Positions 267-44,975 of a stretch of 64,000 nt of DNA are shown piece by piece; the stretch's first letter is position 1; each line of letters starts with the position of its first letter. This DNA is from an uncultured Clostridia bacterium (lineage in GTDB: Bacteria > Bacillota > Clostridia > TANB77 > CAG-508). Under the pieces are notes generated by a model. That model ran no database searches. It was not told where the DNA came from and saw only the letters and a program-made list of their open reading frames with translations. The position numbers and the translations under genes were made by a program. The stretch covers positions 31,731 to 95,730 of the forward strand of contig CANQGE010000001.1 in NCBI GenBank assembly GCA_947601495.1, written 5' to 3'.

Positions 267-947
267 TTATTTCTTTTGTATTTCTTCAAAAACAGCCTTA
301 TAAATTTCTTCATGTATATCTTCTCTAGTTCTTATTTCATCTTCTTTAACACATTTTATTTCATTCCAATTATATTCTTTTACTAAACTACAAGCTGCAT
401 TATAAGAATCTTCTAAGTGCTTTTGATCTCTTTCATGTATATCTTTTTTACTATCGTGTGTAAATTTGTTTTCTCTATTTGTTATTAACTCTCTAACTTT
501 TTCAGGTGGCATATTTAAGAAAAATACTTTTGTTGGAACTGGAAGTCCAAAAATATTAAATTCTAAATCAAATAACCACTTTAAAAATTTGTCTCTTTCT
601 TTTTTATCAGAAATTTTACCAGCTTGATGAACCATATTAGCTGTTGTATATCTATCTGCTAATATTATTCCATCATTTTCATAATATTGTTTTAAATCTT
701 TTATATATGTTGCATATCTATCTACAGCATAAAAAGTTGAAGCAATATAAGGGCTTATTTCTTTAGCATTTTCTCCAAATTCTCCAGATAAATACATTTT
801 TACAAGTGATGATGAAGGACTATCATAATTTGGAAAACTAACTGTTTTATAACTTATTCCATCTTGCTTTAAATGATTTTTTAGTAACTCAAATTGAGTT
901 TGTTTTCCACTTCCATCTGTTCCATCAATAACAAATAACTTTCCCAT
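267..947 (-). CDS. tmk: thymidylate (dTMP) kinase family protein
   Basis: 226-aa ORF with P-loop IDGTDGSGKQTQ and a DRY-type motif (ILADRYTTANMVHQ). AGGGGA RBS upstream. Confidence 0.8.
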   Translation of the reverse strand: MGKLFVIDGTDGSGKQTQFELLKNHLKQDGISYKTVSFPNYDSPSSSLVKMYLSGEFGENAKEISPYIASTFYAVDRYATYIKDLKQYYENDGIILADRYTTANMVHQAGKISDKKERDKFLKWLFDLEFNIFGLPVPTKVFFLNMPPEKVRELITNRENKFTHDSKKDIHERDQKHLEDSYNAACSLVKEYNWNEIKCVKEDEIRTREDIHEEIYKAVFEEIQKK

Positions 948-957
948 AATATTTCCC

Positions 958-2559
958 CTATTTTTTACTTATTCTATTAAATAATGGTTCTACATTTTCA
1001 AGTTTTAGTCCAGAGCTAACCTCTGTAAATTCCCATTTAGGTTCTTTTAAATCTAAATAGTTTCTAATTTTTTGACAGGCTGTTGGCATAACTGGTTCAA
1101 AAAGATTTGCTAAATTAGCAATAATTATGCTACATGTATAGATAGTATTGTTGAAAGAATCTATATTTTCTTTTCTTGCAACCCAAGGTTTATTTTCATC
1201 ATAAAACTTGTTTCCAAGTTCAACTAAATCCATAACCTTTTTTATTGCTTCTCTAAATTCTAGTTTTTCAATTAATTCGCCAACTTCTTTATATGTTTTT
1301 TCAATATTAACTTTTATTTCTTCATCTAATTTTCCAATAGGAATTTCTTCTAATTCTTTAAATCTTAATGTTCTATTAACTAAATTTCCAAATTTATTTA
1401 ATATTTCGCCATTATGTGTTTTTTCAAAATCTTCTATTGTAAAGTTTGTATCTTTTTTCTCTGGTCCATTTGCTAATAAATGATATCTTAAAGAATCTGA
1501 ATCATACATATCTAATGCTTCTAAGGCTGTCATTCCTATTCCTTTACTCTTAGAAAATTTTTGATCATTAAAATTTAAATATTCTGCTGAAACTATTGTA
1601 TCTACTAAATGGTAGTTTTCTTCTTGTCCTAACAATAAGGCATTTAAAATTATGCTATGGAACATAATGTTATCTTTTCCATGGCACATATATATTTTAT
1701 TATTATGTCCTTCTTTCCAAAAATCTTCCCATGTGCAGTCTGTTCTATTTTCACATAGTTTCATTGTATCTGTAAGATATCCCAAAACTGCATCAATCCA
1801 AACATACATTCTTTTATCTTCATAACCTGGAATAGGAATATCTACTCCCCAATTTAAATCTCTAGTAACAGCTCTATCCATTAAGCCTTGTTTTAAATAT
1901 TTTAAAGTTTCATTTTGAGCATTTATTCTCCATTCACCTTTTACTTTTTCTGTATGCTCTTCTATTTGTTTTTGAAATTTTGAAAGAGCTAAATATAAAA
2001 CTTTATTATTTCTCTCAGAAACTTTTGAACCACATTCAATACAATTTCCTGTTTTTAATTCTTCGTTTGTTGGAACATGAAGACAATTATCACATTGGTC
2101 ACCTTTAGTTTCTGCACCACATTCAGGACAAGTAAGAACAATTTCTCTATCTGATAAGAACTTACCACATGTTTCACAATATGTTTGTGGTTCTATTTTT
2201 TCATAAATATATCCATTATCATATAATTTTTTAAATAATATTTTTACTTTTTCTTTATGATATTCATCAAAAGTTCTTGAATATAAATCATAAGAAAATT
2301 GATAACCCTTAAAGATTTTGTTAAATTCTTCATCATATTTACTTGCTATTTGTTTTGGTGAAATTTTTTCTTTTCTTGCTCTTTCAGTAATTGGAGTTCC
2401 ATGGCAATCTGATCCAGAAACATAAAGAACATTTTCTCCTTTTAGTCTATAATATCTTGCCAAGAAATCTCCTGATATAAGTCCAGCAATATGTCCTAAA
2501 TGCAAAGAGCTATTTGCATATGGCCATGCTCCACCTATAAGTATATTTTTTCTATTCAT
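958..2559 (-). CDS. metG: methionyl-tRNA synthetase
   Basis: 533-aa ORF with a class I HIGH-type motif (SLHLGHIAG) and a KMSKS-type loop (KFSKSKG). Four CxxC zinc knuckles (CETCGK, CPECGA, CDNC, CIECGS) are typical of MetRS. GGAGA RBS. Confidence 0.95.
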   Translation of the reverse strand: MNRKNILIGGAWPYANSSLHLGHIAGLISGDFLARYYRLKGENVLYVSGSDCHGTPITERARKEKISPKQIASKYDEEFNKIFKGYQFSYDLYSRTFDEYHKEKVKILFKKLYDNGYIYEKIEPQTYCETCGKFLSDREIVLTCPECGAETKGDQCDNCLHVPTNEELKTGNCIECGSKVSERNNKVLYLALSKFQKQIEEHTEKVKGEWRINAQNETLKYLKQGLMDRAVTRDLNWGVDIPIPGYEDKRMYVWIDAVLGYLTDTMKLCENRTDCTWEDFWKEGHNNKIYMCHGKDNIMFHSIILNALLLGQEENYHLVDTIVSAEYLNFNDQKFSKSKGIGMTALEALDMYDSDSLRYHLLANGPEKKDTNFTIEDFEKTHNGEILNKFGNLVNRTLRFKELEEIPIGKLDEEIKVNIEKTYKEVGELIEKLEFREAIKKVMDLVELGNKFYDENKPWVARKENIDSFNNTIYTCSIIIANLANLFEPVMPTACQKIRNYLDLKEPKWEFTEVSSGLKLENVEPLFNRISKK

Positions 2560-2590
2560 TAATTTTCTCCTTTTTTAATTTCAAGTTATT

Positions 2591-3967
2591 CTAATATCTC
2601 CTGCCATAAGGGTCTGATGGTCCCAAAACATGTAGTTCTTCTTCATCTTCTTCGTCTTTACTTTGTGGTTTTTCTGCTGGTTTTTCTGTTGGTGTTTCTT
2701 CAGGTGTTTCTTCTTTTACTTCTTCTTCAGCTTCTGATTTTTCTCTTGCTTCTATTTTGTCCATTATTTCGTCTCTTTTGCCCATATCTGTTTCAATTTC
2801 TGATCTAATTGTAGGAAGTTTTAATCCATATTTATCAAATAATTTTAATCTATCATCATTGATTTCTTGCATTTTTTCGATTTTTTCTGCTTTTGAAAGA
2901 TTTGTAACATTTTTTATTGAATCTTGTTTATTTTCTAATTCTTCTAAGTTTTGTGCCAATAATTCCTTGTCTTCTCTTCTTAAGTCTCTAGGTTCAGTAA
3001 CTAAATCTGCAACTATTTGATGCCCGTCCATATCTTTATAATATACTTTCGTACCTTTATCTTCCGCATTATCAACTACAGAAGCAGTTTTATATTCATC
3101 CATTACTTTTGTTGCATCTTCATCATATCTTCTTTCATCTATAACTCTTTCACCTTGTACAAATACTATTCTGTCATTTCCTGTTGAAATATCTCCACTA
3201 GAAAAAGCTAAACAATAAACTGGTCCACCATTATCTTGTAATCCTGCTGTATCAATTAATTGATCTGAAATGCTAGAAGGATTTCTTGCTATTAAAACAT
3301 GTTTTAAAGTTGCACCTTCTCTTTCTTTTATTTCATCTACTTTATCTTTTACATTTTCTGGTATGTTTACTTCTTCTTCCTCTTTTTCTTCTTCTGAAAG
3401 TTCTGCATCTTTTTCCTTAGTTTCTTCTTCCTTACCTTTATCTCTTTCCTCTTCTTCTCTATCTATTTCTTTTACTTGAAGATTTGGATTATTTTCTTTT
3501 ATTTTTTTAATAGTTTCTTCTTCATTTTCGGGAATTAATGTATCTTCTGCTATTTGTTTTTCCATTTCTTCTGGGGAATCTGGAAATAATGCATTTTCGA
3601 CTTCTTCTACTGATACATTTGCTTCAACTGCATATTTAAATACTTGTTTTTTCATTCGTGGAGTTAGCATAAAATTTTGTGAGTTTTCATCATCACCAAT
3701 AAAATCAACAGCCATATCTTCACCTTTGTCATTTACAGTTAATATTTGTGTTTCTCCATTTGGTAACAATATTTGAACTTTTCCAATTTTTTCTACTGTT
3801 CCGTCTCTTTTTTGAATTTCTTTTACTTCTACTAAATCAATATTAGATGGATCTATATCTCTTACCCTCATAGTTTTTTTACCATCTGATGATACATATG
3901 TATCTGCATTTTCATAAACTTTTGCAAGTAAAAATTGTCTTTGTAAATAATTATCTATATCGTTCAT
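2591..3967 (-). CDS. hypothetical, highly acidic protein
   Basis: 458-aa ORF with an AAGGAGA RBS. It has long E/D/K-rich blocks, no signal peptide or TM segment, and no motif I recognise. Confidence 0.6.
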   Translation of the reverse strand: MNDIDNYLQRQFLLAKVYENADTYVSSDGKKTMRVRDIDPSNIDLVEVKEIQKRDGTVEKIGKVQILLPNGETQILTVNDKGEDMAVDFIGDDENSQNFMLTPRMKKQVFKYAVEANVSVEEVENALFPDSPEEMEKQIAEDTLIPENEEETIKKIKENNPNLQVKEIDREEEERDKGKEEETKEKDAELSEEEKEEEEVNIPENVKDKVDEIKEREGATLKHVLIARNPSSISDQLIDTAGLQDNGGPVYCLAFSSGDISTGNDRIVFVQGERVIDERRYDEDATKVMDEYKTASVVDNAEDKGTKVYYKDMDGHQIVADLVTEPRDLRREDKELLAQNLEELENKQDSIKNVTNLSKAEKIEKMQEINDDRLKLFDKYGLKLPTIRSEIETDMGKRDEIMDKIEAREKSEAEEEVKEETPEETPTEKPAEKPQSKDEEDEEELHVLGPSDPYGRRY

Positions 3968-4136: not shown

Positions 4137-7100
4137 TTATAAGTTTTTATTGTATTTTGTTTTAGGATATAAATTATCACCTAATAGTTCTTCTTCTATT
4201 CTAGCTTCTTCTTTTTGCTTTTCTCTTTCTTCTTCTCTTTGCTTTCTTATTTCCTCTTGTTTTCTCATTTTTTCTTCTTTTAGTTTTTGTCTTTCAATTT
4301 TTCTTTTTTCAGCTTTTTCTTTTCTTAGTTTATTTCTTTCTTCCCTTAATTTTCTTTGTTCTTCTTGTTTTTCTTTTTTATCTATAGATAATATATTTTC
4401 CTCATCTTTTTCTATTTCATACATTCCAGAATTTTCTGTTTCTGCACTCTCAACATCAATATCGCTTTTACTATCGAATTTTTCTATAATGCTTTCATAA
4501 AATTGCCTATTTTCCATTGATTTGTTAAACTCTTCTTCAGTTTTAAATTTTGAATCAATTTCATATATTTTTGAGAAATGAATCATAGATAATTTATCTG
4601 TTATGTTTATTCTATTTGTAAGCCAAATATTATTTAACTTATATTCAAGTTCAATATTAGATTCTTTTAATTCAGCTATTCTTAATCTTTTACATCTTAA
4701 ATCATATTCTTCTGATTTTTCATCTGGAAGTCTATCATAATTTTTTGACATACAATAAGCATAAGTATCTGCTCTATTAGAAACTACTTTTTCTTTTATC
4801 CAAACAGAATCATCATAATCGCAAAGAGTTGTATAAACTAAGGTATCTATTCTTTGAGCTTGCCTTTTGGTTATACCATATAATCCCATTAAGCCTTGCA
4901 TTCTATCACGTATTAGTGAAGGAGAATAATGTTTTTTCTCAAATCCGTCGTTTTTATCTATTCCTCGTATAATTTTTTCTACAAATATTTTTTCACTAAA
5001 TACTCTACAATATCCCTCTTCTGCATCAACAAAAATTAATACTGCACCATTTTTTTTGTTTGTTTCTACATTTTTTTTATCTTTTTTATGTTCTTTTTTT
5101 AATTCTCTTCTCTCTGCTTTTGCTCTTTCTAATTCTCTTTTCTCTGTTTCTCTTCTTTCTGCCTCTTGTTTTTCTTTTTCACGTTTTTCTATTTCTCTTT
5201 TTTCTGCTTCTATTCTTTCTTGTTCTATTCTTTCATTCTTTTTTGCTTCTAATTCTTTATTGTTCTCTTTTAAAATAGTTTCATTTTTTTCTTTCTGAAT
5301 ATTTTTAAAATCATTCTTTTTATTTATTTCATTTTCATTTTGAAATTCATCAAAAGTTTCCTGACCTTCGTAAGTATCTGAATTATTTTCTTTCTCTACA
5401 TCTAAATTTTCATCTAAGCTGTCAAATGATAATTGTGTGTTTTCTTCAGTTTCAATGTTGTTTAGATATATTTTGTCAAATTCTTTTTCTTTTTTTCTTT
5501 CTTCTATTTTTTCTTTAATACCTAATCCAAAATTTACTGTACTTGTTTTTACTTTATTAAAAGAGTTACTTACTACAGCTACGGTTTTTTCTTTTAAATT
5601 TTTTAATGATTTTGCAATATTTTCAAAATAATTATTAACTTTAAAACTTGATTCTGCATTATTAACTCTATTAGAAGAATTATTTATTAAAACAATGTTG
5701 TTTACATTTGTTTTTTTAGGATTTTTATTATAAATATTATTTTTATCTACAATTTCAATTTCTGGAATTATTGTTTTTATACTATCTTCTATATTGATAA
5801 TTTTTTCTTTATTTTCATTATTAGTTTTATCGTTTAAGTTTTCTTTACTTTCTGCTTTTTGCTCTTCCTTTTTATTATCATTATCTTTTACTTCGTTTGA
5901 CTCATCTTTTTCTTCTTTTTTATCTTTATTTTTATTTTCAATTTTATTTTCTTTATCTTCTAACTTATTATTATCTAATTTTTCTACGATAACTTCTTCT
6001 TTATTTTCAGACTGCTTTTTCTGTTCTATTTTATCTATTTTTGCTGCCATAAGAAGTTTTTGTTTTTTCTCTTCTTGTTTTTCTTTCGCAAAATCTTTTA
6101 ATTTATTAATTAGATTTTTTAAATTTTCTATAATTTTAGAAACGTTTAATTTTAAAAATGAAAATACTTTAATAGAAGTTGTTTTTATGTCTTGGAAAGA
6201 TATTTTTCTTCTAAATTTAGTTTTGTTTATTATAATTCCCATTGGATTTCCACCAACATTTTGAATATCTTTCTTAGCTTTAAATAAATCCTCTTTTTTA
6301 GTTTTCTTATAGTCCGATACTATTATTGTTGAATTAACAGCTCTAGTTAAAATTAAAGAATTCATATTGTTTAACACAGAAGTTCCATCTATTAAAACTA
6401 AATCATAAAAAACACTTAAGTCTTTTATTAATTCTTGTAATCTTTCAGAAGTAAGCAATTCTGTTGAATTTGGTGGTACTGTTCCTGAAGTAATCAAATT
6501 TAAATTTTTTATTCCTGTTTCATTTATAAAATTGTTTGTAAGTTTTTTTATTTCCATTCCATTAGAATCTAAACTTGATAAGTAATTAGAAAATCCAAGA
6601 TTGTTTGGTATGTTAAATATTTTATTTTGTCTACCATTTTGCATATCTGAATCTATTATTATTACTTTTTTTCCACTTTCTGCAAAAATTACACCAAGAT
6701 TAGCTGTAATGTAACTTTTTCCTTCACCATCTAAAGGACTTGTTATAAGTATTATGTTTTTCTCTTTATTATTAACGTTTATAAATTGAATATTAGTTCT
6801 AAGATTTCTAAATGCTTTTAAAGTTATTGATTTGCTTCCTGAAGTAGTTGATATTAATTCATTTTTAATTTTATTTGATTTATTTTTTTTGCAATTTATT
6901 AAAGGAATTTCAATTAATTTTTTTAAATTTATTTCATTATCGATGTTCTCATTAATTTTAATATTTCTGTCTATAATCGCTACAGCAAAAATATAACCAG
7001 AGCTTACTAAAATACCAATTATAAGAGAAATAAACGCACATAATATTATTGAAATATTTGTTGTAACTTTATTTATATGAGGACTATCAACTATATATAT

Positions 7101-10443: not shown

Positions 10444-11985
10444 TTATTTTGCATAATCAATTACTCTAGATTCTCTAATAACATTTACTTTAATCTGTCC
10501 TGGATATTCCATTTCATTCTCTACTTTTTTAGCAACATCTCTAGCCATAATAACCATATCTGCATCAGATACCTTTTCTGGTTTTACAATTAATCTAACT
10601 TCACGTCCAGCTTGAATTGCAAATGATTTTTCAACACCTTCAAATGAATCTGCTATTTCTTCAAGTTTTTCTAATCTCTTAATGTAAGATTCTAATGTTT
10701 CTCTTCTTGCTCCTGGTCTTGAAGCTGATATAGCATCTGCTGCTTGTACTAAAACTGCTTCTAAAGTAAGTGGTTCAACATCTCCATGATGTGCTTCAAC
10801 TGCATTAATTACGTTTTCATTTTCTTTATATTTTCTAAGAATTTCAACGCCTAATTCAACATGTGTTCCTTCCATATCATGGTCTAATGCTTTTCCTAGG
10901 TCATGTAATAAACCAGCACGTCTTGCTATTTTTGAATTTATACCTAATTCTTCTGCCATTATTCTAGCTAAATTAGAAACTTCTATTGAATGATTTAATA
11001 CATTTTGTCCATAGCTTGTTCTATATTTTAGCTTACCAATTAATTTTATTATATCTGGATGAAGATTATTTACACCTGTTTCTAAAGCTGCTCTTTCTCC
11101 TTCTTCCTTAATTGTTTGGGCTACTTCTTCTTTTGCCTTTTCAACCATTTCTTCTATTTTTGCAGGATGAATTCTACCATCTTCAATTAATTTTTCAATT
11201 GCAATTCTAGCAACTTCTCTTCTTAGTGGGTCAAATCCAGAAATAATAACTGCTTCTGGAGTGTCATCAATAATTAAATCAATTCCGGTAAGAGTTTCTA
11301 ATGCTTTAATGTTTCTTCCTTCTCTTCCTATAATTCTTCCTTTCATTTCGTCATTTGGAAGAGCAACAACAGATACCGTTGTTTCAGAAGTATGATCAGC
11401 TGCACATTTTTGAATTGCAAAACTAATTATTTCTCTTGCATTCTTTGTAGCTTCTTCTTTTGCCTTTGCTTCTTGGTCTCTAATAATTGCAGCCTTTTCC
11501 TGTGTAATTTCTTTATCCAAATTACTTAATAATTGTTGTTTTGCTTGTTCTTCAGTTAAACCTGAAATTCTTTGTAATTCCTCTGATTGTTTATTACAAA
11601 TTTCTTCCAATTCTTGTTTTTTCTGTTCATTTTCTGCATATTTTCTTTCAAGTTCTCTTTCTTTTCCTTCACAAGCTGTTACTCTTTTTTCTAAGTTTTC
11701 TTCTTTTTGAATTAGTCTTCTTTCTTGTGTTTGAATGTCACCTCTTCTTTCTTTAATCTCTTGCTCTAAATCATTTCTTATTTGTAGTACTTCCTCTTTT
11801 GCTTTAATTAATTCTTCTTTTTTTAAATTTTCGGCTTCTACTTTTCCGTTTTCAATTAATCTTTTAGCTTCATTTTCCGCACTTTGAATTTTAGACTCTG
11901 CAGTTCTTTTTCTAATAACCATTCCTACTGGAATGAAAATTATAGCTGAGATTAGAAGAGTGGCAATGATTGAAATTGTTTGCAT
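10444..11985 (-). CDS. rny: ribonuclease Y
   Basis: 513 aa with an N-terminal TM anchor and coiled coil, a KH domain ([15 protein letters not shown]) and an HD domain ([11 protein letters not shown]). Confidence 0.95.
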
Positions 11986-12091
11986 AATTACATTTACCTC
12001 TTTTCTATTAAATTTTCAATGTACAACAAAATTATTCCATAAACTAAGTTATCATTTATATAATTTATATTGTATTTTTTCCTACATTAAT

Positions 12092-12120
12092 ATTTTATAT
12101 GTATTATTGCAATGTGTCAA
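12092..12120 (-). promoter_or_regulatory. candidate sigma-A promoter for rny
   Basis: On the minus strand: TTGACA (rc of 12115-12120), a 17-nt spacer, then TAAAAT (rc of 12092-12097). The leader would be about 100 nt. Confidence 0.4.
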
Positions 12121-12150
12121 GTTTTTTTCTTGGAAAATTATGTAAATTTT

Positions 12151-13083
12151 CTATTCAAACATTTTATTTATAGCCTTTTCAAAAACATTTTTTGCAATTT
12201 TATATCCAGAAGGAACTATTTCTGAAAATTTATTCATGCAAACATTTCCATTTATTTCCATAACAAAAATTTTTTCATCAGATGTAACTGCTATATCAAT
12301 ACTTGCAAAATTAATGTTTATAGCATTTCCTGCTTGAATTGCAACTTTTTTAATTTCTTCAATGTATTTATCATTTTCATCAATTAAAATTGGTTCTGCT
12401 CCGTTATTTAAATTATGTTTCCAGCATACTGTAACTTCTTCATTTTTTAAAGGTATTTTATTTAAATCTAAATCTTTACAAATTGGAAGATTCATTTTAT
12501 CATATTTAATGCTAATTAATTCACCTATATTATGAACTCCATCGCCTACAACATATGCTTTTTTCTTTTTATATGCATATATTACTTCACCGCTTAAAAA
12601 TATAACTCTATATTCATAGTCTATATCCATATATGGACAGGCGCTTAAAGTATCATTATCTTCAAATAGTTTAGAAACAATTTTTCTTACTTCATCTTCA
12701 GTTGAGCAATAATATACATCTTTTCCCTCATATGAATTATTTGCTTTTATTACCAATTTATTATTTGAACTTTTAAGCAAATTAATTGCTTCATCTAAAA
12801 ATTTTTGATTATAATATGCACTTCTAGTTTTAGGATTAAATATTATTTTATGTGGTATAGTTGATATATTGTTTTCATGTAGCACTGCATAAGTTGCAAA
12901 TTTATCTGATGCAATGTTATATGATGTTGTACTATTTAAATCCAATTGATATCCTATTATGTGTCTCTTCTTTCCATCTTTTATTAGTTCTTTAATCCAG
13001 CCATAAGAAAGTTCTTTTTGGGTAATATTTTTTTCATTACAAATCTCATTAATTATTTTATAAAATGGTTTATGCTTTTCCAT
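12151..13083 (-). CDS. ATP-grasp fold protein (RimK/ligase-like), function unknown
   Basis: 310 aa. The C-terminal half shows an ATP-grasp-like pattern (..EYRVIFLSGE.., ..HNLNNGA.., ..IDIAV...IFVMEINGN..). AAGAGGA RBS. Confidence 0.5.
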   Translation of the reverse strand: MEKHKPFYKIINEICNEKNITQKELSYGWIKELIKDGKKRHIIGYQLDLNSTTSYNIASDKFATYAVLHENNISTIPHKIIFNPKTRSAYYNQKFLDEAINLLKSSNNKLVIKANNSYEGKDVYYCSTEDEVRKIVSKLFEDNDTLSACPYMDIDYEYRVIFLSGEVIYAYKKKKAYVVGDGVHNIGELISIKYDKMNLPICKDLDLNKIPLKNEEVTVCWKHNLNNGAEPILIDENDKYIEEIKKVAIQAGNAININFASIDIAVTSDEKIFVMEINGNVCMNKFSEIVPSGYKIAKNVFEKAINKMFE

Positions 13084-13167: not shown

Positions 13168-15204
13168 TTATTTTAATTTAGTTACAATTTTTAGAATTTC
13201 AGAATCGCTCCAAGCCTGTGAGAAAGTTCCACCAGGGTTAAAAGGTAATTCTGCATCATATACTTCTGAAAGAGTTCCAACTCCTTGAGAATTATTTATT
13301 TCCACTTTAAAAGTATTGTAAACTTTTTCTATAAATTTTTCGTATTCTATTTTTAATTTTTCTTTTTCTAATCTATCTTTTTCAAATTCTATTATATTCT
13401 TAAAGCTATCATTATATAGTCCTAAAAGCCAAATCCAAATTGTTCCTTGATGATATGCTGAATCTCTTTCAAAAACATTTCCTTCATAATGTGGAATATA
13501 TCCTTCCTCATCTTTTGCAAGGGTTTTTAATCCATACTTAGTAAGCAATTTACTTGTTACTGTTTTAAATATTGTTTTTCCAATTTCAGAAGAAGGTTTT
13601 ATAACTGGATATGTTGTTGATATTGCAAATAATTGATTTGGTCTAATTTTTTCATCTCCAATAACATCATATAAAGACTTTTTCTTTTTATTATAAAATT
13701 GTTTTTCAAATTCTTTCTGATGCTCTACTGCTGTTTTTTTATAAATGTCAGCTAGTTCTTTTTCATCAAATCTTTTTGCTAAATTTTCCAAAGTTTTTAA
13801 TGCATTATAGTAAAGTGCATTTAATTCAACAACTTTACCATTTCTAGGTGTAACTGCTTTGTTTCCAATTTTAACATCCATCCATGTATTTTGGGTGTCT
13901 GGAGTTCCAGAGCATAAAAGTCCATCATTTGCAATATAGATGTTGTTATTATCTTGATTAATTCCTGATTGATAATATTTAATTATTTCTTTTAACTTTT
14001 CATATATATTATTTTTTATGAAATCATAATCTTTTGTATATTGTAAAAATTTATTTACTTGCTCAAATAGTAATAGTGATGCATCTGCACTATTATATAG
14101 AGGTCTATTATCAAAACCAGAGTAACCGTTTGGAACTAGTCCAAATTTAACATCTCTAGTAAAAGTTAATAATATTTCTTTTGCTAAATCATATCTTTTA
14201 GTTATTAAAAATGCTCCTTCAAAGGCAATTAATGAATCTCTTCCCCAATCTAAAAACCATGGAAATCCTGCTATAATTGAATGTGTTCCAAATGAAGGTC
14301 TATTTATAACAAAGCTATCTAAGGCAATTACAAGGTCTTTTACTAATTCGTTGTAGTCTTTCTCTTTTTTAGTTAATTTGCTTTTTTCTTTTAATAGTTT
14401 TGTGTTATTTACAACAGTTTCAATTCTTTTTATTTCATTTTGTATTACTTTATTTGCATCAACTTGTTCTGTATTATCTTCTAATGAAGCTACGAAAGTT
14501 ATTTCTTTAGTTTCACGAGGTTTAATTTTTATTTCATATCTACCAGGAATAATTAAATTTTCTTTTGGGAAAAATCCTCTTTCTTCCTCTTTTATATAAA
14601 ACATATCTCTAAATACATCATTATAATGTTTTATGTATTCGCCTTCATTAGAAAAAATATAAAGAGGGAAGCTTGCATTTCCATCTATTTCTAATCTAAC
14701 TTTATTATTATCATTTTTTTGTTTTAACTCAAATTCGTGGTTTGTAGTCATTTGATGGAAGTCTCTAAAATTAACAATAGGCGTTAATTTCAAAAGAGAC
14801 TCTTTTTTTCCATTTTTTATTTTATATTGTACGACTACTGTATTTCTTCCATATATCATTGATATAGTTTTCACTATTTTTACATCTTCAATTTTATAAG
14901 TGAAAACAGGCAAAAATTCTTTTTCAAATGATTCTAAATTTTTATATCCTTCTGAAATATAGTTTTCACATACATTTGTAAATAAGTTGTACTCATCTCG
15001 ATCAATTAATATGCTTTCATCAAGTTTTGAAAGTAATAAATGCCTTTGTGCTGGTGGATTTAAAGGTGCTACTAGTAGTCCATGATATCTTCTAGTATTT
15101 GCTCCAATAACTGTTGATGAAGCAAAACCTCCTATTCCATTTGTTATAATCCATTCTTTATTTAAAGCATTTTTTAAATCGATTTGTTTTTTTAATAGTT
15201 TCAT
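13168..15204 (-). CDS. glycogen debranching enzyme (amylo-alpha-1,6-glucosidase, archaeal/GDE_C type)
   Basis: 678 aa. N-terminal GDE_N-like (ITNGIGGFASSTVIGANTRRYHGLL) and C-terminal (alpha/alpha)6 GDE_C-like (GFPWFLDWGRDSLIA, ...YHQGTIWIWLLG...). Confidence 0.85.
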   Translation of the reverse strand: MKLLKKQIDLKNALNKEWIITNGIGGFASSTVIGANTRRYHGLLVAPLNPPAQRHLLLSKLDESILIDRDEYNLFTNVCENYISEGYKNLESFEKEFLPVFTYKIEDVKIVKTISMIYGRNTVVVQYKIKNGKKESLLKLTPIVNFRDFHQMTTNHEFELKQKNDNNKVRLEIDGNASFPLYIFSNEGEYIKHYNDVFRDMFYIKEEERGFFPKENLIIPGRYEIKIKPRETKEITFVASLEDNTEQVDANKVIQNEIKRIETVVNNTKLLKEKSKLTKKEKDYNELVKDLVIALDSFVINRPSFGTHSIIAGFPWFLDWGRDSLIAFEGAFLITKRYDLAKEILLTFTRDVKFGLVPNGYSGFDNRPLYNSADASLLLFEQVNKFLQYTKDYDFIKNNIYEKLKEIIKYYQSGINQDNNNIYIANDGLLCSGTPDTQNTWMDVKIGNKAVTPRNGKVVELNALYYNALKTLENLAKRFDEKELADIYKKTAVEHQKEFEKQFYNKKKKSLYDVIGDEKIRPNQLFAISTTYPVIKPSSEIGKTIFKTVTSKLLTKYGLKTLAKDEEGYIPHYEGNVFERDSAYHQGTIWIWLLGLYNDSFKNIIEFEKDRLEKEKLKIEYEKFIEKVYNTFKVEINNSQGVGTLSEVYDAELPFNPGGTFSQAWSDSEILKIVTKLK

Positions 15205-21709: not shown

Positions 21710-21837
21710 ATAACCATAAGTATTTTACTATATTAACATAAAAAAATCAAGATAATATTTATTTCTAAGTTCTATCATTTGCATTTGTATATTTTTTAAT
21801 TATTAATTTTATTTTTAGCTATTATTATTTAAATAGC

Positions 21838-21991
21838 TATCTAATATAGTTTATATAATTTAAAGGTAACGCGTAAGCGACCAACCGAAGCGAAAGCGAA
21901 GGGCGATTGGAGCAATCTTCATTTTGTTAATTTTAAAAAAAGAAGATTGCGACACCAAGTTACCGATAAATTATATAAACTATATTAGATA
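21838..21991 (-). repeat. long-hairpin element A: 25-bp perfect AT stem + 98-nt GC-rich core (copy 1 of a 2-copy family)
   Basis: The inverted repeat 21838-21862 / 21967-21991 is perfect. Core 21866-21963 is 91/98 identical to the reverse complement of 44554-44651. It contains a 9-bp helix GCAATCTTC/GAAGATTGC. The strand given is the one sharing sense with copy B. Confidence 0.85.
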
Positions 21992-22045
21992 ATGGTATTT
22001 TAATTAAACAGATATAATAAACTTAAAATAAAATTTTTGCTTCAA

Positions 22046-25345: not shown

Positions 25346-25699
25346 TTATTTAAAATTTACACCTATTATTCCACCAATTGCTCCTCCTAAGATTCCAAGA
25401 GCCATCATTATTATCGAATTAATATTTAAATTAAATTTTAAGTTTATAATACTTGATATCAAATATAGGATAACCATATATATAAATCCTAATATACTTC
25501 CATATAAAATTCCTTTTTCTTTTTTTATTCTTGAAATTCTAAATCCGCAAACTAAAAGTGAAAAGCTCACAATAGCAATTGTTACTGGAACAATTACAGT
25601 TTCACTTAAAGACGTTTCACTAAGCAAAATTGATAAGATAAAAATTAAAGCTACTGAAATTAGAATTGATAAAAAAGTTTCTCTAAAAAAATATTTCAT
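25346..25699 (-). CDS. small multi-pass membrane protein (YrzE-like position)
   Basis: 117 aa with 3-4 predicted TM segments and an AGGAGGA RBS. It lies between tgt and the secD-like gene, as small membrane genes do in other Firmicutes. Confidence 0.55.
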   Translation of the reverse strand: MKYFFRETFLSILISVALIFILSILLSETSLSETVIVPVTIAIVSFSLLVCGFRISRIKKEKGILYGSILGFIYMVILYLISSIINLKFNLNINSIIMMALGILGGAIGGIIGVNFK

Positions 25700-25733
25700 A
25701 AAATCCTCCTAAAAAATTTTTTAATTTAATTTT

Positions 25734-25922
25734 TTATTAACTATATAATATAACTGAATTGCAGCTATCGCTTTTGAAAGTAATTGAGTTAGAATTGCTT
25801 AATATATTTTACGGAAAGAGTTCACAAACTTGTGGAAGGGTGCCGTAAAATGTATTTAGCAATTCTACGAAAATTAGCTTGAACAAGATAGCGAAAATGA
25901 AGTTATATTATATAGCTAATAA
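25734..25922. repeat. long-hairpin element C: 189-nt imperfect palindrome with GC-rich tip
   Basis: Outer arms TTATTA(A/G)CTATATAATATAACT (25734.. / ..25922). Apical stem TAGAATTGCTTAATATATTTTACGG (25790-25814) / CCGTAAAATGTATTTAGCAATTCTA (25843-25867) has 2 mismatches. The 28-nt tip AAAGAGTTCACAAACTTGTGGAAGGGTG is about 46% G+C (about 50% with the flanking ACGG/CCGT pairs). Confidence 0.75.
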
Positions 25923-25967
25923 AGCTTATTTCTAAGTAAAAGTTTTTAAGCAAAAGTATATTTTTAA

Positions 25968-26006
25968 ACAAAAAAATACTTCTATAAAATTATATTTATA
26001 GAAGCA
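25968..26006 (-). terminator. rho-independent terminator after the WG-repeat protein gene
   Basis: 10-bp stem CTTCTATAAA / TTTATAGAAG (25979-88 / 25995-26004) followed by a U-run on the minus strand. Confidence 0.7.
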
Positions 26007-26037
26007 TTTTTTATAACTATTTAATATATCTTTTCTA

Positions 26038-27621
26038 TTAATTTGATGTATTTGAATTTGAAACTTTATTAGTTGTATTTTCAGTATTTGTAGAAGAATT
26101 TTTGTCAGTAGTTGTATTTGAAACTTTATTTTCATTAGAAGTTGTTTCACTTTCAGTATCGCTATTTTTTTCTTCATTCTCTTCTTTTTCATCTATGTTT
26201 ATAAGATTTTGTTCTTCTAAGAAATCTCTTAAAGGTCTTGCCTGTCCATCATGTTCCATATAATATGTTGTTTCTCCTGATTTTGTAATTGCATATATTT
26301 TAGTGCAAACACAAGGTAATACTATTCTTTCCTCAGTTATATCATATATTCCATATAGTTCATCTTTCTTTATAACAATTCCTTTTATTCCAACAGATGG
26401 TGGTATAAGAAGAACATTTTCTTCATGTCCTGATGTAGTTTCTTTTGAACCAGTTTTATATCCTAAATCATCTATTGTAATTGATAATATTAAATCTCCT
26501 TCTGTATTACATAATCCATATAAATCATCTTTTTGAACAGGTATAACTTCTCCAAAAAGTAATGATGAATTTTCAATATCGTCTAGTTCAAATTCAGAAG
26601 TATCAAAACCTATTGCATCATTTTCTGCATGAATAAGAGTTTTTCCATTTCTATTTACAACTCCAAATTCTCCATCTTTTTCTACTAAATAAAGTTGTTT
26701 TTCATCATCTAGCAAAGAAATATTTTCAAATTCTGACGGAGCAATTACTGTTCCACCATCTGAGTTTAATATTCCCATTGTTCCATTTGATGCAGTTACA
26801 TAAAATTCTTTTACATTTTGAACAAATTTTATATCATTATATTTTACACCTATTACTTCTCTGCCATTTTCGCTTAAAGAAATTACGCCATATAAATTAT
26901 CTTTTGAACCTTCTGTACCTTTTGAAACTATAACAAAATCATACAAAATTGATTTTAAGTTTTCATAATATCCACTTATTTGTGTATATCCAAGTTGAGC
27001 AATAGAAGATTTTGCTTGTTTAACTATATAATCTAAAGTATAAAATCTATATCTATATGGTTTCCAATCAATTCTTAAATTAAGCATTTCTGCAGCATCT
27101 TCTTTTGAAACATATATTTTTCCATCAATAAATTTTAAAGGATTTATTAAATCAAAGTTTTCGCAATAACCACTTTTATTTTTTGTAGTTACAACTATAT
27201 CTGCGATAGTAATTTTTTGACTAGTTGAAACCGTTGAAATATATTTTTGATATTTATTTTCATTAACTGACATTGCAACTATTTCAAAATCATTTTGTAA
27301 ATAGCAACTATCAGCATTTTCATTATATTTATTATATTCACCTTGATTATATGTATAGTTTAATAGAGTGGCTAATTCATTAGCATTTAAATATACTGTT
27401 CCTTCAATTTCTTTATAGAAATCATCTGGAAAGCTTTGTTGCTGATTATTATCTATAAATACTTTGTCTGTAACTGAATCTTGATATTGTAAAAGTAGAA
27501 TCATTGCAACAAGTCCTACTATTAAAAGTGCACATAATACTATAGAAAGCATAACTCCTTTTCTGTTTCTAGTATTTTTTTCCATTTTTTCTCTGTACAA
27601 ATCGCTTTCTTCTAAGTTCAT
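26038..27621 (-). CDS. membrane-anchored repeat protein (WG/KWG-like repeats) with N/T/S-rich tail
   Basis: 527 aa with one N-terminal TM segment (GVMLSIVLCALLIVGLVAMILLL). Aromatic-Gly units recur (LYGVISLSENGRE, EFGVVNRNGK, LYGLCNTEGD, LYGIYDITEE). The C-terminus is low complexity. Confidence 0.55.
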   Translation of the reverse strand: MNLEESDLYREKMEKNTRNRKGVMLSIVLCALLIVGLVAMILLLQYQDSVTDKVFIDNNQQQSFPDDFYKEIEGTVYLNANELATLLNYTYNQGEYNKYNENADSCYLQNDFEIVAMSVNENKYQKYISTVSTSQKITIADIVVTTKNKSGYCENFDLINPLKFIDGKIYVSKEDAAEMLNLRIDWKPYRYRFYTLDYIVKQAKSSIAQLGYTQISGYYENLKSILYDFVIVSKGTEGSKDNLYGVISLSENGREVIGVKYNDIKFVQNVKEFYVTASNGTMGILNSDGGTVIAPSEFENISLLDDEKQLYLVEKDGEFGVVNRNGKTLIHAENDAIGFDTSEFELDDIENSSLLFGEVIPVQKDDLYGLCNTEGDLILSITIDDLGYKTGSKETTSGHEENVLLIPPSVGIKGIVIKKDELYGIYDITEERIVLPCVCTKIYAITKSGETTYYMEHDGQARPLRDFLEEQNLINIDEKEENEEKNSDTESETTSNENKVSNTTTDKNSSTNTENTTNKVSNSNTSN

Positions 27622-29810: not shown

Positions 29811-29884
29811 TTTAAAATCCTTTCTAAATATTTTTTATTAAATATATTTTTAAATTTATATATAACTTTAAATTTTAATCTTTT

Positions 29885-30086
29885 AATTAGCAAAATTATA
29901 TTATTCAATTAAGTTTTTCCGTTCCAGCTAATTCTTATAGAAATTCTAAAATTATAAAATGCGCCTCTTTCGCTGCTCAAATCTTCGATTTGCCTTCGAA
30001 CATCCCTCATTTTATAATTTAAGAATTTCTATATAAGAATTACTCTCAATCCAAAACTTAATTTCATAATATAAATTTTGCTAATT
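29885..30086. repeat. long-hairpin element D: 202-nt hairpin (two ~30-bp AT stems, internal loop, 46-nt GC-rich tip)
   Basis: Basal stem AATTAGCAAAATTATATTAT..AATTAAGTTTT / AAAACTTAATT..ATAATATAAATTTTGCTAATT. The internal loop is TCCGTTCCAGC vs CTCTCAATCC. Upper stem TAATTCTTATAGAAATTCTAAAATTATAAAATG / CATTTTATAATTTAAGAATTTCTATATAAGAATTA. The tip 29962-30007 is about 50% G+C. Confidence 0.75.
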
Positions 30087-32516: not shown

Positions 32517-33650
32517 TACATTTGCTAAATATTTCATACTGCTATTGCACTGTTCTAAAGTATTTCCTGTTGCTCCAACTTCTATTATGCATGCTCCATT
32601 TGCCACATGCTGATTGTATCTTGAATCTCTTAGTATTATTGGTTTAAAAAAACCCGGATACATTTCATTTGCTTTTTCCTGAATTTTTACTGCCAATTTT
32701 AAATTATTTATCCAGTTTGGATGCTCTAATCCTCCTCCATCACTTCCCATAACAAACATAACTTGAGCTACAACATCATCTCCTATTTGTACACAAGGTG
32801 CATAAGAACTATTATTTCCTAACGCATCTCTATGTAAATCTATTACAAATTCAGTATCATTGTTATTTGCAAGCATACTTTGAATTGTAGATAGTCCTCT
32901 AGTATATGAACCTGTGTATGCTGGATAATCGTGATATGTTGTATTATGAGTTACATTAAATCCAAATTCTGTAAGATAATTTGTAAGTTCAGTTCCAACT
33001 CTTGCCACACTTTTTTCTAAATCTATTGTTCTAAAATTTCCACTAGCGACATAATTGTTTTCTACTGTAGGAGTGTAACTTTCACAAGTATGTGTATGAT
33101 AAATTATAATGTTCTTTTTATTTGAAAAATCTATATTTGGATTTAGCATTTCTTGTGTAAGTGGATATTTAGATTCATTCTTTATTTTCACACTATTATA
33201 TGTATCTGTAAACTTATCAATTTTGTTATTGTCATCTATAACTTTTGTTGGGAGTAAGACATTTTCTAAATCATTTAAACTACTATTGTTTAAATTACTA
33301 TCACCATTTGTTTTGCCTAAATTAACATTATTCTCTTGGATTTCTGAATCCACTTGCTTTTCTTCTGAATTCAAAATTTTAATTTCTGACATTAACAATT
33401 TTTTAAATACACTTACATTTTCATTTTTAGTTTGTTCGTTTGAAAAAGATTTAGAAATTATAAGTGTATTATCTAATATTTTTTCTACGCCAAAATTAGA
33501 AAAATATTTTTCTTTAACAGCTGAAATATTTTTTGTAGTTTTAACTGCTCCTATAACTTTCCATAACACAAATAAAATAATTAAAAGTACTATACATTTT
33601 TTTATGAACTTAATTATATCTTTTAGGTTTATAACAGCTAAATTAATCAT
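32496..33650 (-). CDS. spoIIP: stage II sporulation protein P
   Basis: Has the SpoIIP signature IIIYHTHTCESY and DLHRDA. I prefer the ATG at 33650 (MINLAV..., GAGGA RBS) over the GTG at 33662. Confidence 0.88.
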   Translation of the reverse strand: MINLAVINLKDIIKFIKKCIVLLIILFVLWKVIGAVKTTKNISAVKEKYFSNFGVEKILDNTLIISKSFSNEQTKNENVSVFKKLLMSEIKILNSEEKQVDSEIQENNVNLGKTNGDSNLNNSSLNDLENVLLPTKVIDDNNKIDKFTDTYNSVKIKNESKYPLTQEMLNPNIDFSNKKNIIIYHTHTCESYTPTVENNYVASGNFRTIDLEKSVARVGTELTNYLTEFGFNVTHNTTYHDYPAYTGSYTRGLSTIQSMLANNNDTEFVIDLHRDALGNNSSYAPCVQIGDDVVAQVMFVMGSDGGGLEHPNWINNLKLAVKIQEKANEMYPGFFKPIILRDSRYNQHVANGACIIEVGATGNTLEQCNSSMKYLANVIKEVMK

Positions 33651-33712
33651 ATTTTTCCTCACTTACAAACAAGTATATTAATTTGAAATACAAATTATTA
33701 CTTAATTTAAAT

Positions 33713-33752
33713 TAAAAATGAACTTAAAATATTTCTAATATTCTAAGTTCAT
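33713..33752 (-). terminator. rho-independent terminator after hisS
   Basis: 14-bp stem GAACTTAAAATATT / AATATTCTAAGTTC (one mismatch) followed by UUUUU on the minus strand. Confidence 0.65.
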
Positions 33753-33828
33753 CTTCTATTTTAATTGTATTTTACTTTTCTATTAATATAATTAATTTAG
33801 CTGTTGTTTAATCTTTATTTTAAGAAGT

Positions 33829-44454: not shown

Positions 44455-44521
44455 ATTGCTTAATATTATTAACATTGCTTAATAATATTATTAAATATTA
44501 ATCAATACTATTAATCAATAC
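44455..44521. repeat. two pairs of short tandem direct repeats
   Basis: ATTGCTTAATATTATTAAC / ATTGCTTAATAATATTATTAA (44455-44494), then TATTAATCAATAC x2 (44496-44521), abutting the left arm of element B. Confidence 0.7.
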
Positions 44522-44527
44522 TATTGT

Positions 44528-44677
44528 GAATGCTTAAAAAATATAATTTAATAGTAACTTGGTGTCGCAATCTTCTTTTTTATAAATAAACAAAAGGAAG
44601 ATTGCTCCAATCGCCCTCCGCTTATGCTTCGGTTGGTCGCTTACGCGTTACTATTTAATTATATTTTTTAAGCATTC
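44528..44677 (+). repeat. long-hairpin element B: second copy of the 98-nt GC-rich core, inverted relative to element A
   Basis: Core 44554-44651 is the reverse complement of 21866-21963 at 91/98 identity. The outer stem GAATGCTTAAAAAATATAATTTAATA / TATTTAATTATATTTTTTAAGCATTC is 26 bp with one mismatch. Confidence 0.85.
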
Positions 44678-44714
44678 ATAATATTTTTTGCAATTAATTT
44701 TAAAAATTATTTTA

Positions 44715-44975
44715 TTACTTCTTTTTGAGGTAAAGAAAAAGAACTCTTATTTGAGTTCTCCGTAACATTTCTTCTAATATTTTCTCTGCTACTATCAAAG
44801 GTGTTTGTTTTGGATTTGGTATTGCGCTGATTTTCTCCAAGTATTCTATTTGTTTCTCCCTCGGAAGCTTTTGAGCTTTCTCTACCATATTGTCCAAATA
44901 TTCCATTCGTTCCTTTTCTGTTCTCTGAAAACTTGTTAGACAACTGAATATTGTTCCTGATGGGTAATATACCAT
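44715..44975 (-). CDS. hypothetical small protein in a locally GC-enriched patch (reading frame uncertain)
   Basis: 86-aa ORF with an ATG preceded by AGGGGAAG at good spacing. The helical-looking segment is MEYLDNMVEKAQKLPREKQIEYLEKISAI.... A second frame (44707..44943, TTG start) is also open. G/C-ending codons are more frequent than in neighbouring genes. Confidence 0.3.
   Translation of the reverse strand: MVYYPSGTIFSCLTSFQRTEKERMEYLDNMVEKAQKLPREKQIEYLEKISAIPNPKQTPLIVAEKILEEMLRRTQIRVLFLYLKKK

Follow-up and report, generated by a model that had tools for sequence, protein, structure and literature searches.

How does a long palindrome come to lie between the terminator of one gene and the start codon of the next, and does it do anything for its host? 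The question is raised by element C, at 25733-25923 of a 64,000-nucleotide stretch of DNA from an uncultured Clostridia bacterium (contig CANQGE010000001.1, positions 31,731 to 95,730; this whole stretch is hereafter the window, and its coordinates are used throughout). Sequence inspection and an inverted-repeat search of the window define C as an imperfect palindrome of 191 nt. A first-pass annotation, made from the letters alone, had placed it correctly and recognized its layered anatomy, although it put the span at 189 nt. We find that C belongs to a family of small repeats, hairpin-forming and hitherto undescribed, in low-GC gut Clostridia.

The palindrome goes far beyond chance. RNA folding of the plus strand of C gave -72.3 kcal/mol, against -33.5 ± 3.6 for shuffled sequences (z -10.8), and folding of the minus strand gave -61.6 kcal/mol (z -9.9), with 0 of 200 shuffles as good in either case; folds with DNA parameters gave z of -8.6 and -8.8. 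G+C content is ~30% over C and 34% in its core, the window being at ~26% throughout. C lies between two minus-strand genes, an upstream gene for a 527-aa WG-repeat protein and a downstream gene for a 117-aa DUF3792 membrane protein. The terminator hairpin of the former (25971-26012, minus strand), which is kept in relatives without C, is 47 nt away, and the ATG of the latter (25697-25699, minus strand, with the Shine-Dalgarno sequence AGGAGG at 25705-25710) is 33 nt away, close to the ~45 and ~35 nt annotated earlier.

A family of hairpin-forming repeats

The window holds a paralogue of C, element D (29883-30085), which lies in the spacer between coaE and queA in inverted orientation. Full-length local alignment of C with the reverse complement of D scored 36, compared with 16.3 ± 2.6 for shuffled sequences. 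The best block of 30 nt shared by C and D, run as a search pattern against a metagenome collection, recovered nine loci, all in DNA of 23-28% G+C. Seven of these hold full-length copies: five near-identical ones of ~345 nt come from a single assembly, JAAGKN01 (loci L132, L133, L136, L139 and L140), and one each was found in L137 and L138. The remaining two, L134 and L135, are partial. A second copy in L138 was recovered by profile search. If the five JAAGKN01 copies are taken as one type, the nine loci and the second L138 copy amount to five further sequence types, the two partial ones included. Profile and covariance-model searches gave E-values of 1e-21 to 1e-35, and a covariance model, R1, scored all members at 107-149 bits (107 for D) and found no further members in 301 kb of related loci.

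These copies settle several points that the first-pass annotation had left for checking. It suspected C to be a designed element and not a chance palindrome, and the existence of a family with covarying stems bears this out. C is neither unique nor absent from all relatives, since it has the paralogue D, copies in metagenomes and copies in a sister lineage; it does match a repeat family, but an undescribed one. The 22 nt of the tip of the hairpin were found among the GTDB species representatives only in one metagenome-assembled genome (MAG), CANQYM01 (uncultured Clostridia bacterium, rabbit).

The outer arms of C (25733-25755 and 25901-25923) are AT-rich and pair over 23 bp with one A.C mismatch. 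The left arm contains TATAAT (25744-25749) and, by reading, is weakly similar to the termini of D and L133 (ATTAGC/ATTAAC... TGAA). On its minus strand the right arm carries the -10 TATAAT of a promoter-like site (TAGAAA-16-TATAAT, minus strand, 25934 to 25907; 10/12 match), and the 13 nt at its end (25911-25923) read TTTATTAGCTATA on that strand. The middle of C, between the outer arms and the inner stem, is partly mismatched. Aligned arm against arm in a gapped ladder, C shows an outer tandem G.A motif, TGAA (25755-25758) against TGAA (25898-25901), which is also present in D and L133, and a third such motif, TGAG (25785-25788) against CGAA (25868-25871). The left core block, TTGAAAG plus GTAATT (25774-25785), is nearly invariant across the family in the alignments, the ladders and the pair table; its TTGAAAG opposes CTTGAAC (25878-25884) as T-A, G.A, A.G, A-T, A-T, and its GTAATT pairs with AATTAGC (25872-25878). 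The right core block, CGAAAATTAGCTTGAAC (25868-25884), is the best conserved stretch of the family and served as search pattern. The inner stem, with TAGAATTGCTTAATATATTTTACGG (25790-25814) as its left half pairing with 25843-25867, has 25 bp including one T.T and one T.G. It is capped by a tip of 28 nt (25815-25842), in which a mini-hairpin, TTCACAA-AC-TTGTGGAA, is flanked by a purine-rich internal loop, AAAGAG / GGGTG. The length of the tip and its mini-hairpin stand as annotated; its G+C content is 12/28 (43%) and not ~46%.

Short open reading frames (ORFs) of 10-12 codons within C show, by reading, no conservation among family members, and the candidates MYLAILRKLA (after GAAGGG in C) and MKISLN (in L133 and L137) were rejected as not conserved. 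An 86-aa ORF next to C (25932-26192, minus strand), which overlaps the WG-repeat gene at its 3' end as well as the terminator, is Lys/Ile-rich and almost certainly no gene.

Throughout the family, AT-rich and lineage-specific outer arms enclose a core of ~135 nt that folds as one long hairpin, with the near-invariant blocks CYTTGAAAGTAATT, TAGAAnTTCTTAA and TTTAGAAnTTCTAYGARAATTAGCTTGAAC. Core blocks are ~90% conserved between copies whose arms share only ~55-65% identity. Every copy has inverted arms; those of C, D and L133 are weakly alike (ATTARY...TGAA), those of L137 and L138 unrelated. In a seven-sequence alignment the consensus hairpin comprises 44 pairs, 94.1% of the cells being standard pairs, and 21 of the 44 have changes on both sides. 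None of 500 shuffles reached the observed values, and pairing fell to 36-54% in controls in which the partners were slid by 1-3 columns. Family helix 3, the inner stem in C, has 24 pairs, of which 12 are altered on both sides, with 95% of cells paired.

Two types of tip were distinguished. Type 1 (C, L133, L137, L138b and L135) reads RYGG-AAAnnG-UUC[covarying hairpin]GRA(A)-GGGUG-CCRY, its mini-hairpin covarying as CACAA/TTGTG, CAAG/CTTG and CAAT/ATTG; type 2 (D and L138a) is built around AGGGA...GAGGCGC. Both types co-occur in the window, as C and D, and in L138, as L138b and L138a, and they may travel or work together. In L138, a contig of 3.2 kb, the type-1 and type-2 copies lie at 855-1070 (minus strand) and 2379-2593 (plus strand), inverted and 1.3 kb apart, and flank flippase-like ORFs; the window likewise has one copy per tip type, 4 kb apart and inverted. 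Another contig, L003 (Logan ERR10663690_70523), has its position 1 at the exact centre of the C palindrome, and L135 also begins inside a family member. Such hairpins break short-read assemblies.

Spread between sites and invariance in place

The family has spread within at least one genome. At the five JAAGKN01 loci the ~345-nt palindromic unit is near-identical and the flanks beyond it are unrelated; one copy has spoVAE on one side and a convergent surface-protein gene on the other, another is flanked by nth and a paralogous surface-protein gene, and, among the loci compared, the terminus TTGTTRTTTGTAYGA was found at repeat copies only. The copies in L136 and L140 adjoin paralogous genes for LPXTG-type surface proteins. 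Two of the five copies (L133, about 230-300, and L139) have a further ~70 nt of common left flank, which in both holds an inverted repeat, GAGAA..TTCTC; either some copies may have a longer repeated unit, or segmental duplication may account for these two sites. Homologues of spoVAE did not provide a clean empty site for the L136 copy, since their neighbours are different and similarity does not extend past the spoVAE stop codon.

Presence of the family is also lineage-specific at two housekeeping spacers. The gene order coaE-queA-tgt-WG-DUF3792-HD-...-rpsO-pnp is kept in relatives, in which the WG-DUF3792 spacer measures 16-157 nt (338 nt in the window, where it holds C) and the coaE-queA spacer 1-47 nt (280 nt in the window, where it holds D). 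Both elements are absent from the orthologous spacers in L141-L145, L006, L009, L169, L170/L171 and L172; nucleotide identity to the window is 75-84% for L006, L009 and L169-L172. Comparison of the C spacer across relatives, as the first-pass annotation had proposed, gave two answers: C is missing at ≤84% identity and present, letter for letter, in the sister lineage. The relatives' spacers are without similarity to D, and the idea that the outer arms of D were copied from its target was rejected. In the same gene order, L169 (84% identity) has an extra gene of 433 aa between queA and tgt (11037-12338), without a Pfam hit and absent from the window and from all other relatives compared.

One element-free spacer carries a piece of C. 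In L170/L171, at 13948-13960 (corresponding to window 25911-25923), TTTATTAGCTATA stands directly before the Shine-Dalgarno sequence of the DUF3792 gene (0/300 shuffles); these are the first 13 nt of C on the gene-sense strand. A deleted copy may have left this match as its footprint; otherwise it is a target sequence that was there beforehand. L170 is without an AAATTT-type stretch that is present there in the window, L169 and L141, as would suit a deletion. In that case C predates the split of the window and L170 and was lost repeatedly.

The resident copies C and D are under strong constraint. The sister lineage (the MAG locus L173, plus L174 and L175) is 94.3% identical to the window over 20 kb. 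Between the window and L173, 10.4% of four-fold degenerate sites differ (172/1657), as does 4.4% of the intergenic DNA outside C and D (76/1720, with 333 gap columns). C (191 nt) and D (203 nt), in contrast, show 0 differences in 394 nt, against 17 to 41 expected (Poisson P(zero) < 1e-7). The exact 191-nt C was found in L173, L174, L175 and L005, the exact 203-nt D in L173 and L174, and of the five longest runs without a mismatch between the window and L173, C and D account for the only intergenic ones. The identity at D ends 3-8 nt outside its left end, beside a 68-nt indel, so that a recent recombination tract is no explanation for it. The indel is 68 nt of extra AT-rich DNA in L173 (about 5545-5612, next to window 30097), 12 nt from the left end of D; three substitutions fall ≤8 nt from that end in the sister MAG, the 203 nt of D itself being unchanged. 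Since the family has moved within genomes and is yet letter-perfect in place, it probably has a function.

Strand polarity and the acting form

The two strands of the hairpin are not equivalent. On one of them, which we call the GA (purine-mismatch) strand, a gapped ladder counts 9-12 G.A oppositions per element, against 1-2 on the other (62 vs 7 in total); an ungapped self-alignment count of G.T against A.C showed no bias, but is misleading in G.A regions. Many of these oppositions combine into UGAA/UGAA tandem G.A motifs between Watson-Crick pairs; an element has up to four tandem G.A motifs, and C has four, one of them in the purine apical loop. One pair that closes a tandem G.A, the third in C (TGAG against CGAA), covaries, being G-C in C and A-U in other members, with L133 and L138b compared. 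On the GA strand nearly every non-Watson-Crick opposition is a stable G.A, and the helix is continuous; on the opposite strand the same positions become destabilizing pyrimidine-pyrimidine mismatches. Folded as RNA, all six lineages favour the same strand, by 7-15 kcal/mol of minimum free energy, and R1 gives 107-149 bits forward and 33-56 bits on the reverse complements (for C, 121 bits on the plus and 40 bits on the minus strand). The outer arms are plain Watson-Crick palindromes without strand bias. The GA strand of C is the plus strand of the window, antisense to both neighbouring genes, and that of D is the minus strand, sense to its neighbours. The functional strand of C had been taken to be the pyrimidine-bearing minus strand, co-directional with the genes; the mismatch polarity and the model scores speak for the opposite one.

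The reading that we prefer, with a probability of roughly 60%, is that C is a mobile structured repeat, similar to MITEs (miniature inverted-repeat transposable elements) as well as to bcr1 of Bacillus cereus, that is under purifying selection and works as a folded single strand, probably RNA. C and D entered spacers of this lineage and have been kept invariant there. The acting form would be the single strand once folded, in all likelihood a hairpin of RNA transcribed from the purine strand, whose G.A motifs and apical loop are a putative scaffold for protein binding; such a transcript of C would run antisense to the flanking genes. The outer arms may be inverted termini used for mobility, and would put -10-like boxes beside the DUF3792 gene. 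A purine-strand transcript is favoured because RNA but not DNA parameters separate the strands, and because tandem G.A pairs and purine internal loops are typical protein-binding features of RNAs. Effects on DUF3792, through the TATAAT of the arm or a large hairpin in its leader or in a read-through transcript, are plausibly side-effects and not the family's reason.

Several observations weigh against this reading. The ends of C, of D and of the five JAAGKN01 copies show no target-site duplication, and the loci compared yielded no autonomous partner element. The tip 22-mer of C is single-copy across GTDB species representatives, only two diverged copies are known in the window's own genome, the case for a repeat family coming mainly from other assemblies, and the family alignment spans six independent lineages only. 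As L170/L171 carry the first 13 nt of C, histories of gain and loss are not cleanly separated. Neither a promoter nor a terminator of convincing quality keeps a constant position with respect to the core, and the count of promoter-like sites around C equals the shuffle expectation. G.U counts are without clear strand bias (20 vs 13), and with DNA parameters the two strands of C are near-equal (-36.6 vs -35.4 kcal/mol). The choice between RNA and single-stranded DNA, and of the strand that matters, is one of inference; the polarity evidence leans towards RNA, without proof.

Some candidate signals were discarded. An outward promoter made of TTGAAC and the -10 of the right arm was rejected, as spacing and -10 boxes are inconsistent among members; by reading, six of eight right arms face a convergent gene's 3' end. 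Look-alikes of Rex, CodY and CS-6 sites were, by eye, not conserved among members or ordinary for AT-rich DNA.

A more specific proposal, which we regard as tentative, is that C and D could be genes of a new class of structured non-coding RNA that spreads in a MITE-like manner, a rod of ~135 nt that would bind a host protein, with in-phase UGAA/UGAA tandem G.A motifs and at least two apical types, whose copies would be kept invariant through their use by the cell. For proteins, such an RNA could be a sponge or a scaffold; alternatively it could regulate, its purine loops mimicking Shine-Dalgarno or GGA sites.

The same polarity could, though this is rather unlikely, belong to DNA. C would then act as single-stranded DNA or a cruciform, either as substrate of an HUH/Y1-type or other transposase (REPIN/RAYT- or IS200/IS605-like) or as a protein-binding or replication site, and a DNA-binding protein could recognize its six same-strand TGAA repeats, which are spaced at ~10-bp multiples. 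Hairpin polarity is a hallmark of top-strand-specific single-stranded DNA transposition and of ssoA-type origins, and tandem sheared G.A pairs are stable in DNA too. The outer arms, with their plain Watson-Crick pairing on both strands, are as terminal inverted repeats should be, and the spread of the whole unit in JAAGKN01 and the failure to find a promoter or terminator are in line with a DNA element. However, inspection of ORF lists, the only check made, revealed no transposase near any copy; C has no GTAG/CGTC head, no short GC-rich REP unit and no plasmid or phage similarity; and its CS-6-like TAGCGA, in the lower stem, occurs in C only and is not conserved. Moreover, invariance of single copies in place is not expected from selection for mobility alone.

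We consider it improbable that C is a cis-acting element in the 5' untranslated region (UTR) of the DUF3792 gene. The minus strand would be transcribed, and the pyrimidine loops CACCCUUC and AACUCUUUCC, similar to the anti-Shine-Dalgarno tail of the 16S rRNA, would sequester the AGGAGG of the gene or act as a C-rich seed; in a variant, the hairpin would merely stabilize the 5' end of the mRNA. C does end 33 nt before the ATG, the best promoter-like site (10/12), on the minus strand at the upstream arm, would place the core hairpin in the 5' UTR, and both pyrimidine stretches are unpaired in the minus-strand fold. The mismatch-free tract of C runs on for 115 nt into the gene start, but runs of 115 nt are common in the comparison of the window with the sister lineage; pairing of CCUUCC with AGGAGG is, by reading, imperfect; and the mismatch polarity prefers the other strand. 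Relatives keep the DUF3792 gene with a spacer of 16-157 nt and no element, C being absent upstream of the orthologues, in L006, L009, L141-L145 and L169-L172. Other family members adjoin unrelated genes in both orientations; over the family, three copies have the CU strand (opposite to the GA strand) and two the GA strand in gene sense, and about three lie between convergent genes, a placement that argues against a dedicated 5'-UTR regulator of a downstream gene.

That C is the inert remnant of a mobile palindrome, its hairpin a by-product of its making, would suit its lineage-specific presence, its place beside a terminator, where insertions do little harm, the absence of a match to a known RNA family and the two diverged copies only in 64 kb, but is made very unlikely by the conservation data, that is, 0 of 394 positions changed with 17-41 expected, core blocks ~90% conserved while arms diverge to ~55-65%, compensatory changes that preserve the helices and conserved G.A positions.

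Small palindromic repeats are usually dismissed as genomic litter. The C family unites spread, a strand-polar hairpin with conserved non-canonical positions, and letter-perfect resident copies at 10% four-fold divergence, three properties that are seldom demonstrated side by side. If transcribed, the family would be a mobile route by which uncultured gut Clostridia gain structured RNAs, and its G.A-studded rod would point to an unknown binding protein. In practical terms, such elements break metagenome assemblies and alter promoter and terminator geometry beside housekeeping genes, for example queA and pnp.

Neighbouring elements and known repeat families

The window contains other elements with inverted arms, two of which, A (21838-21991) and B (44490-44715), had been described as being of the same design as C. 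The likeness is superficial only: C is one continuous hairpin punctuated by G.A motifs, whereas A and B have a non-palindromic, multi-stem, GC-rich core between ordinary Watson-Crick arms. They form a separate family, with further members in L006 (7805-7930) and L170 (17788-17886), in which unrelated AT-rich inverted arms surround a core of ~100 nt. In this core GTAAC/GTTAC is the closing stem, GCAAYC..GRTTGC a hairpin whose AT loop varies and CCAATCG..CGGTTGG another hairpin, and there is a mini-stem as well. A is missing from the 94%-identical sister lineage, which has a clean 221-nt gap (window 21817-22037). Distant relatives nonetheless have an A-type core in that same spacer, rpsO-pnp, oriented as in the window in L006 but the other way round in L170/L171. 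Rfam gave no match to A or B, and a 16-nt pattern from their core hit at least 120 stretches in viral contigs, all chance matches. A further AT-rich palindrome, E (33633-33805; arms 33633-33653 / 33785-33805 and 33704-33733 / 33737-33766), is unrelated to C and D by profile and is not frozen, differing from the sister lineage by a 12-nt indel.

Comparison of C with known RNAs and mobile elements returned no relative. At gathering thresholds the Rfam 15 models, which include 6S RNA, SRP RNA and known sRNAs, recognized nothing in the window but a tRNA-Thr. In E-value mode nothing around C scored above a generic miRNA-precursor hairpin, whose 30 bits compare with a threshold of 80, and permissive searches around C, A and D likewise gave only generic hairpin (miRNA-precursor) matches far below threshold. 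BLAST of C against plasmid and phage collections gave no match. In viral contigs the 30-nt family block had no match, and a 16-nt block had 23 chance matches, 0 of them confirmed by profile. A full-text literature search for the conserved sequence strings brought up unrelated eukaryotic papers only.

REP and REPIN elements are hairpin-forming repeats, as are C and its relatives; an HUH enzyme presumably acts on them as single strands, and they are long-lived genome residents, not fast-moving parasites. REPs, however, are GC-rich units of 20-40 nt with GTAG/CGTC heads, usually proteobacterial and of high copy number, whereas members of the C family are AT-rich, measure 190-350 nt and are without such heads, and no RAYT was seen in the inspected ORF lists. 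The ssoA-type origins of rolling-circle plasmids are imperfect palindromes of ~150-200 nt that function in one orientation as a folded single strand. Unlike C, which has no plasmid similarity and no conserved CS-6, they are plasmid-borne and defined by an RSB site and a CS-6 hexamer (TAGCGT/A) in the terminal loop; the CS-6-like TAGCGA of C (25888-25893) is in the lower stem, not in a loop, and is absent from other members.

What defines classical MITEs is conservation of their terminal inverted repeats together with target duplications, and their copy numbers mostly run from tens to hundreds. In the C family, in contrast, the interior is conserved and the termini drift, neither C, D nor any of the five JAAGKN01 copies shows a target duplication, the window's genome apparently has a low copy number, and single resident copies are invariant. 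The fixed G.A mismatch polarity of the family has, to our knowledge, not been described for classical MITEs. C does have the small size (191 nt; MITEs measure <~500 bp) and is non-coding, and the family is dispersed and variably present, with at least five copies in JAAGKN01 and absence of C and D at at least ten related loci. Like classical MITEs, which can bear promoter elements and affect neighbouring genes, the family has dispersed copies that would form long RNA hairpins once transcribed (PMC3184786). These MITEs, namely Correia/NEMIS of Neisseria, RUP of Streptococcus pneumoniae, and ERIC/IRU and YPAL/RU-2 of enterobacteria, are, like C, intergenic imperfect palindromes, of 100-170 bp (PMC3184786).

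The nearest analogue appears to be bcr1, a sequence of ~155 bp from the B. cereus group (Group A bcr) that has been set apart as a special class of mobile sequence (PMC3184786). Both are small, non-coding sequences of Firmicutes whose distribution is not conserved between related strains, and in both compensatory base changes preserve a fold, that of bcr1 being of RNA (PMC3184786). The resemblance is a functional one, by the description of bcr1. The two differ in host (the B. cereus group against an uncultured Clostridia MAG), in fold (a two-stem, cruciform-like RNA against a single long hairpin), in the 5-bp direct repeats that flank bcr1 and were not found at C, and in stability, since bcr1 copies have reportedly lost it repeatedly whereas C and D are invariant in place. 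On these comparisons, the C family would best be regarded as a small structured mobile bacterial repeat that stands outside any of the named families compared.

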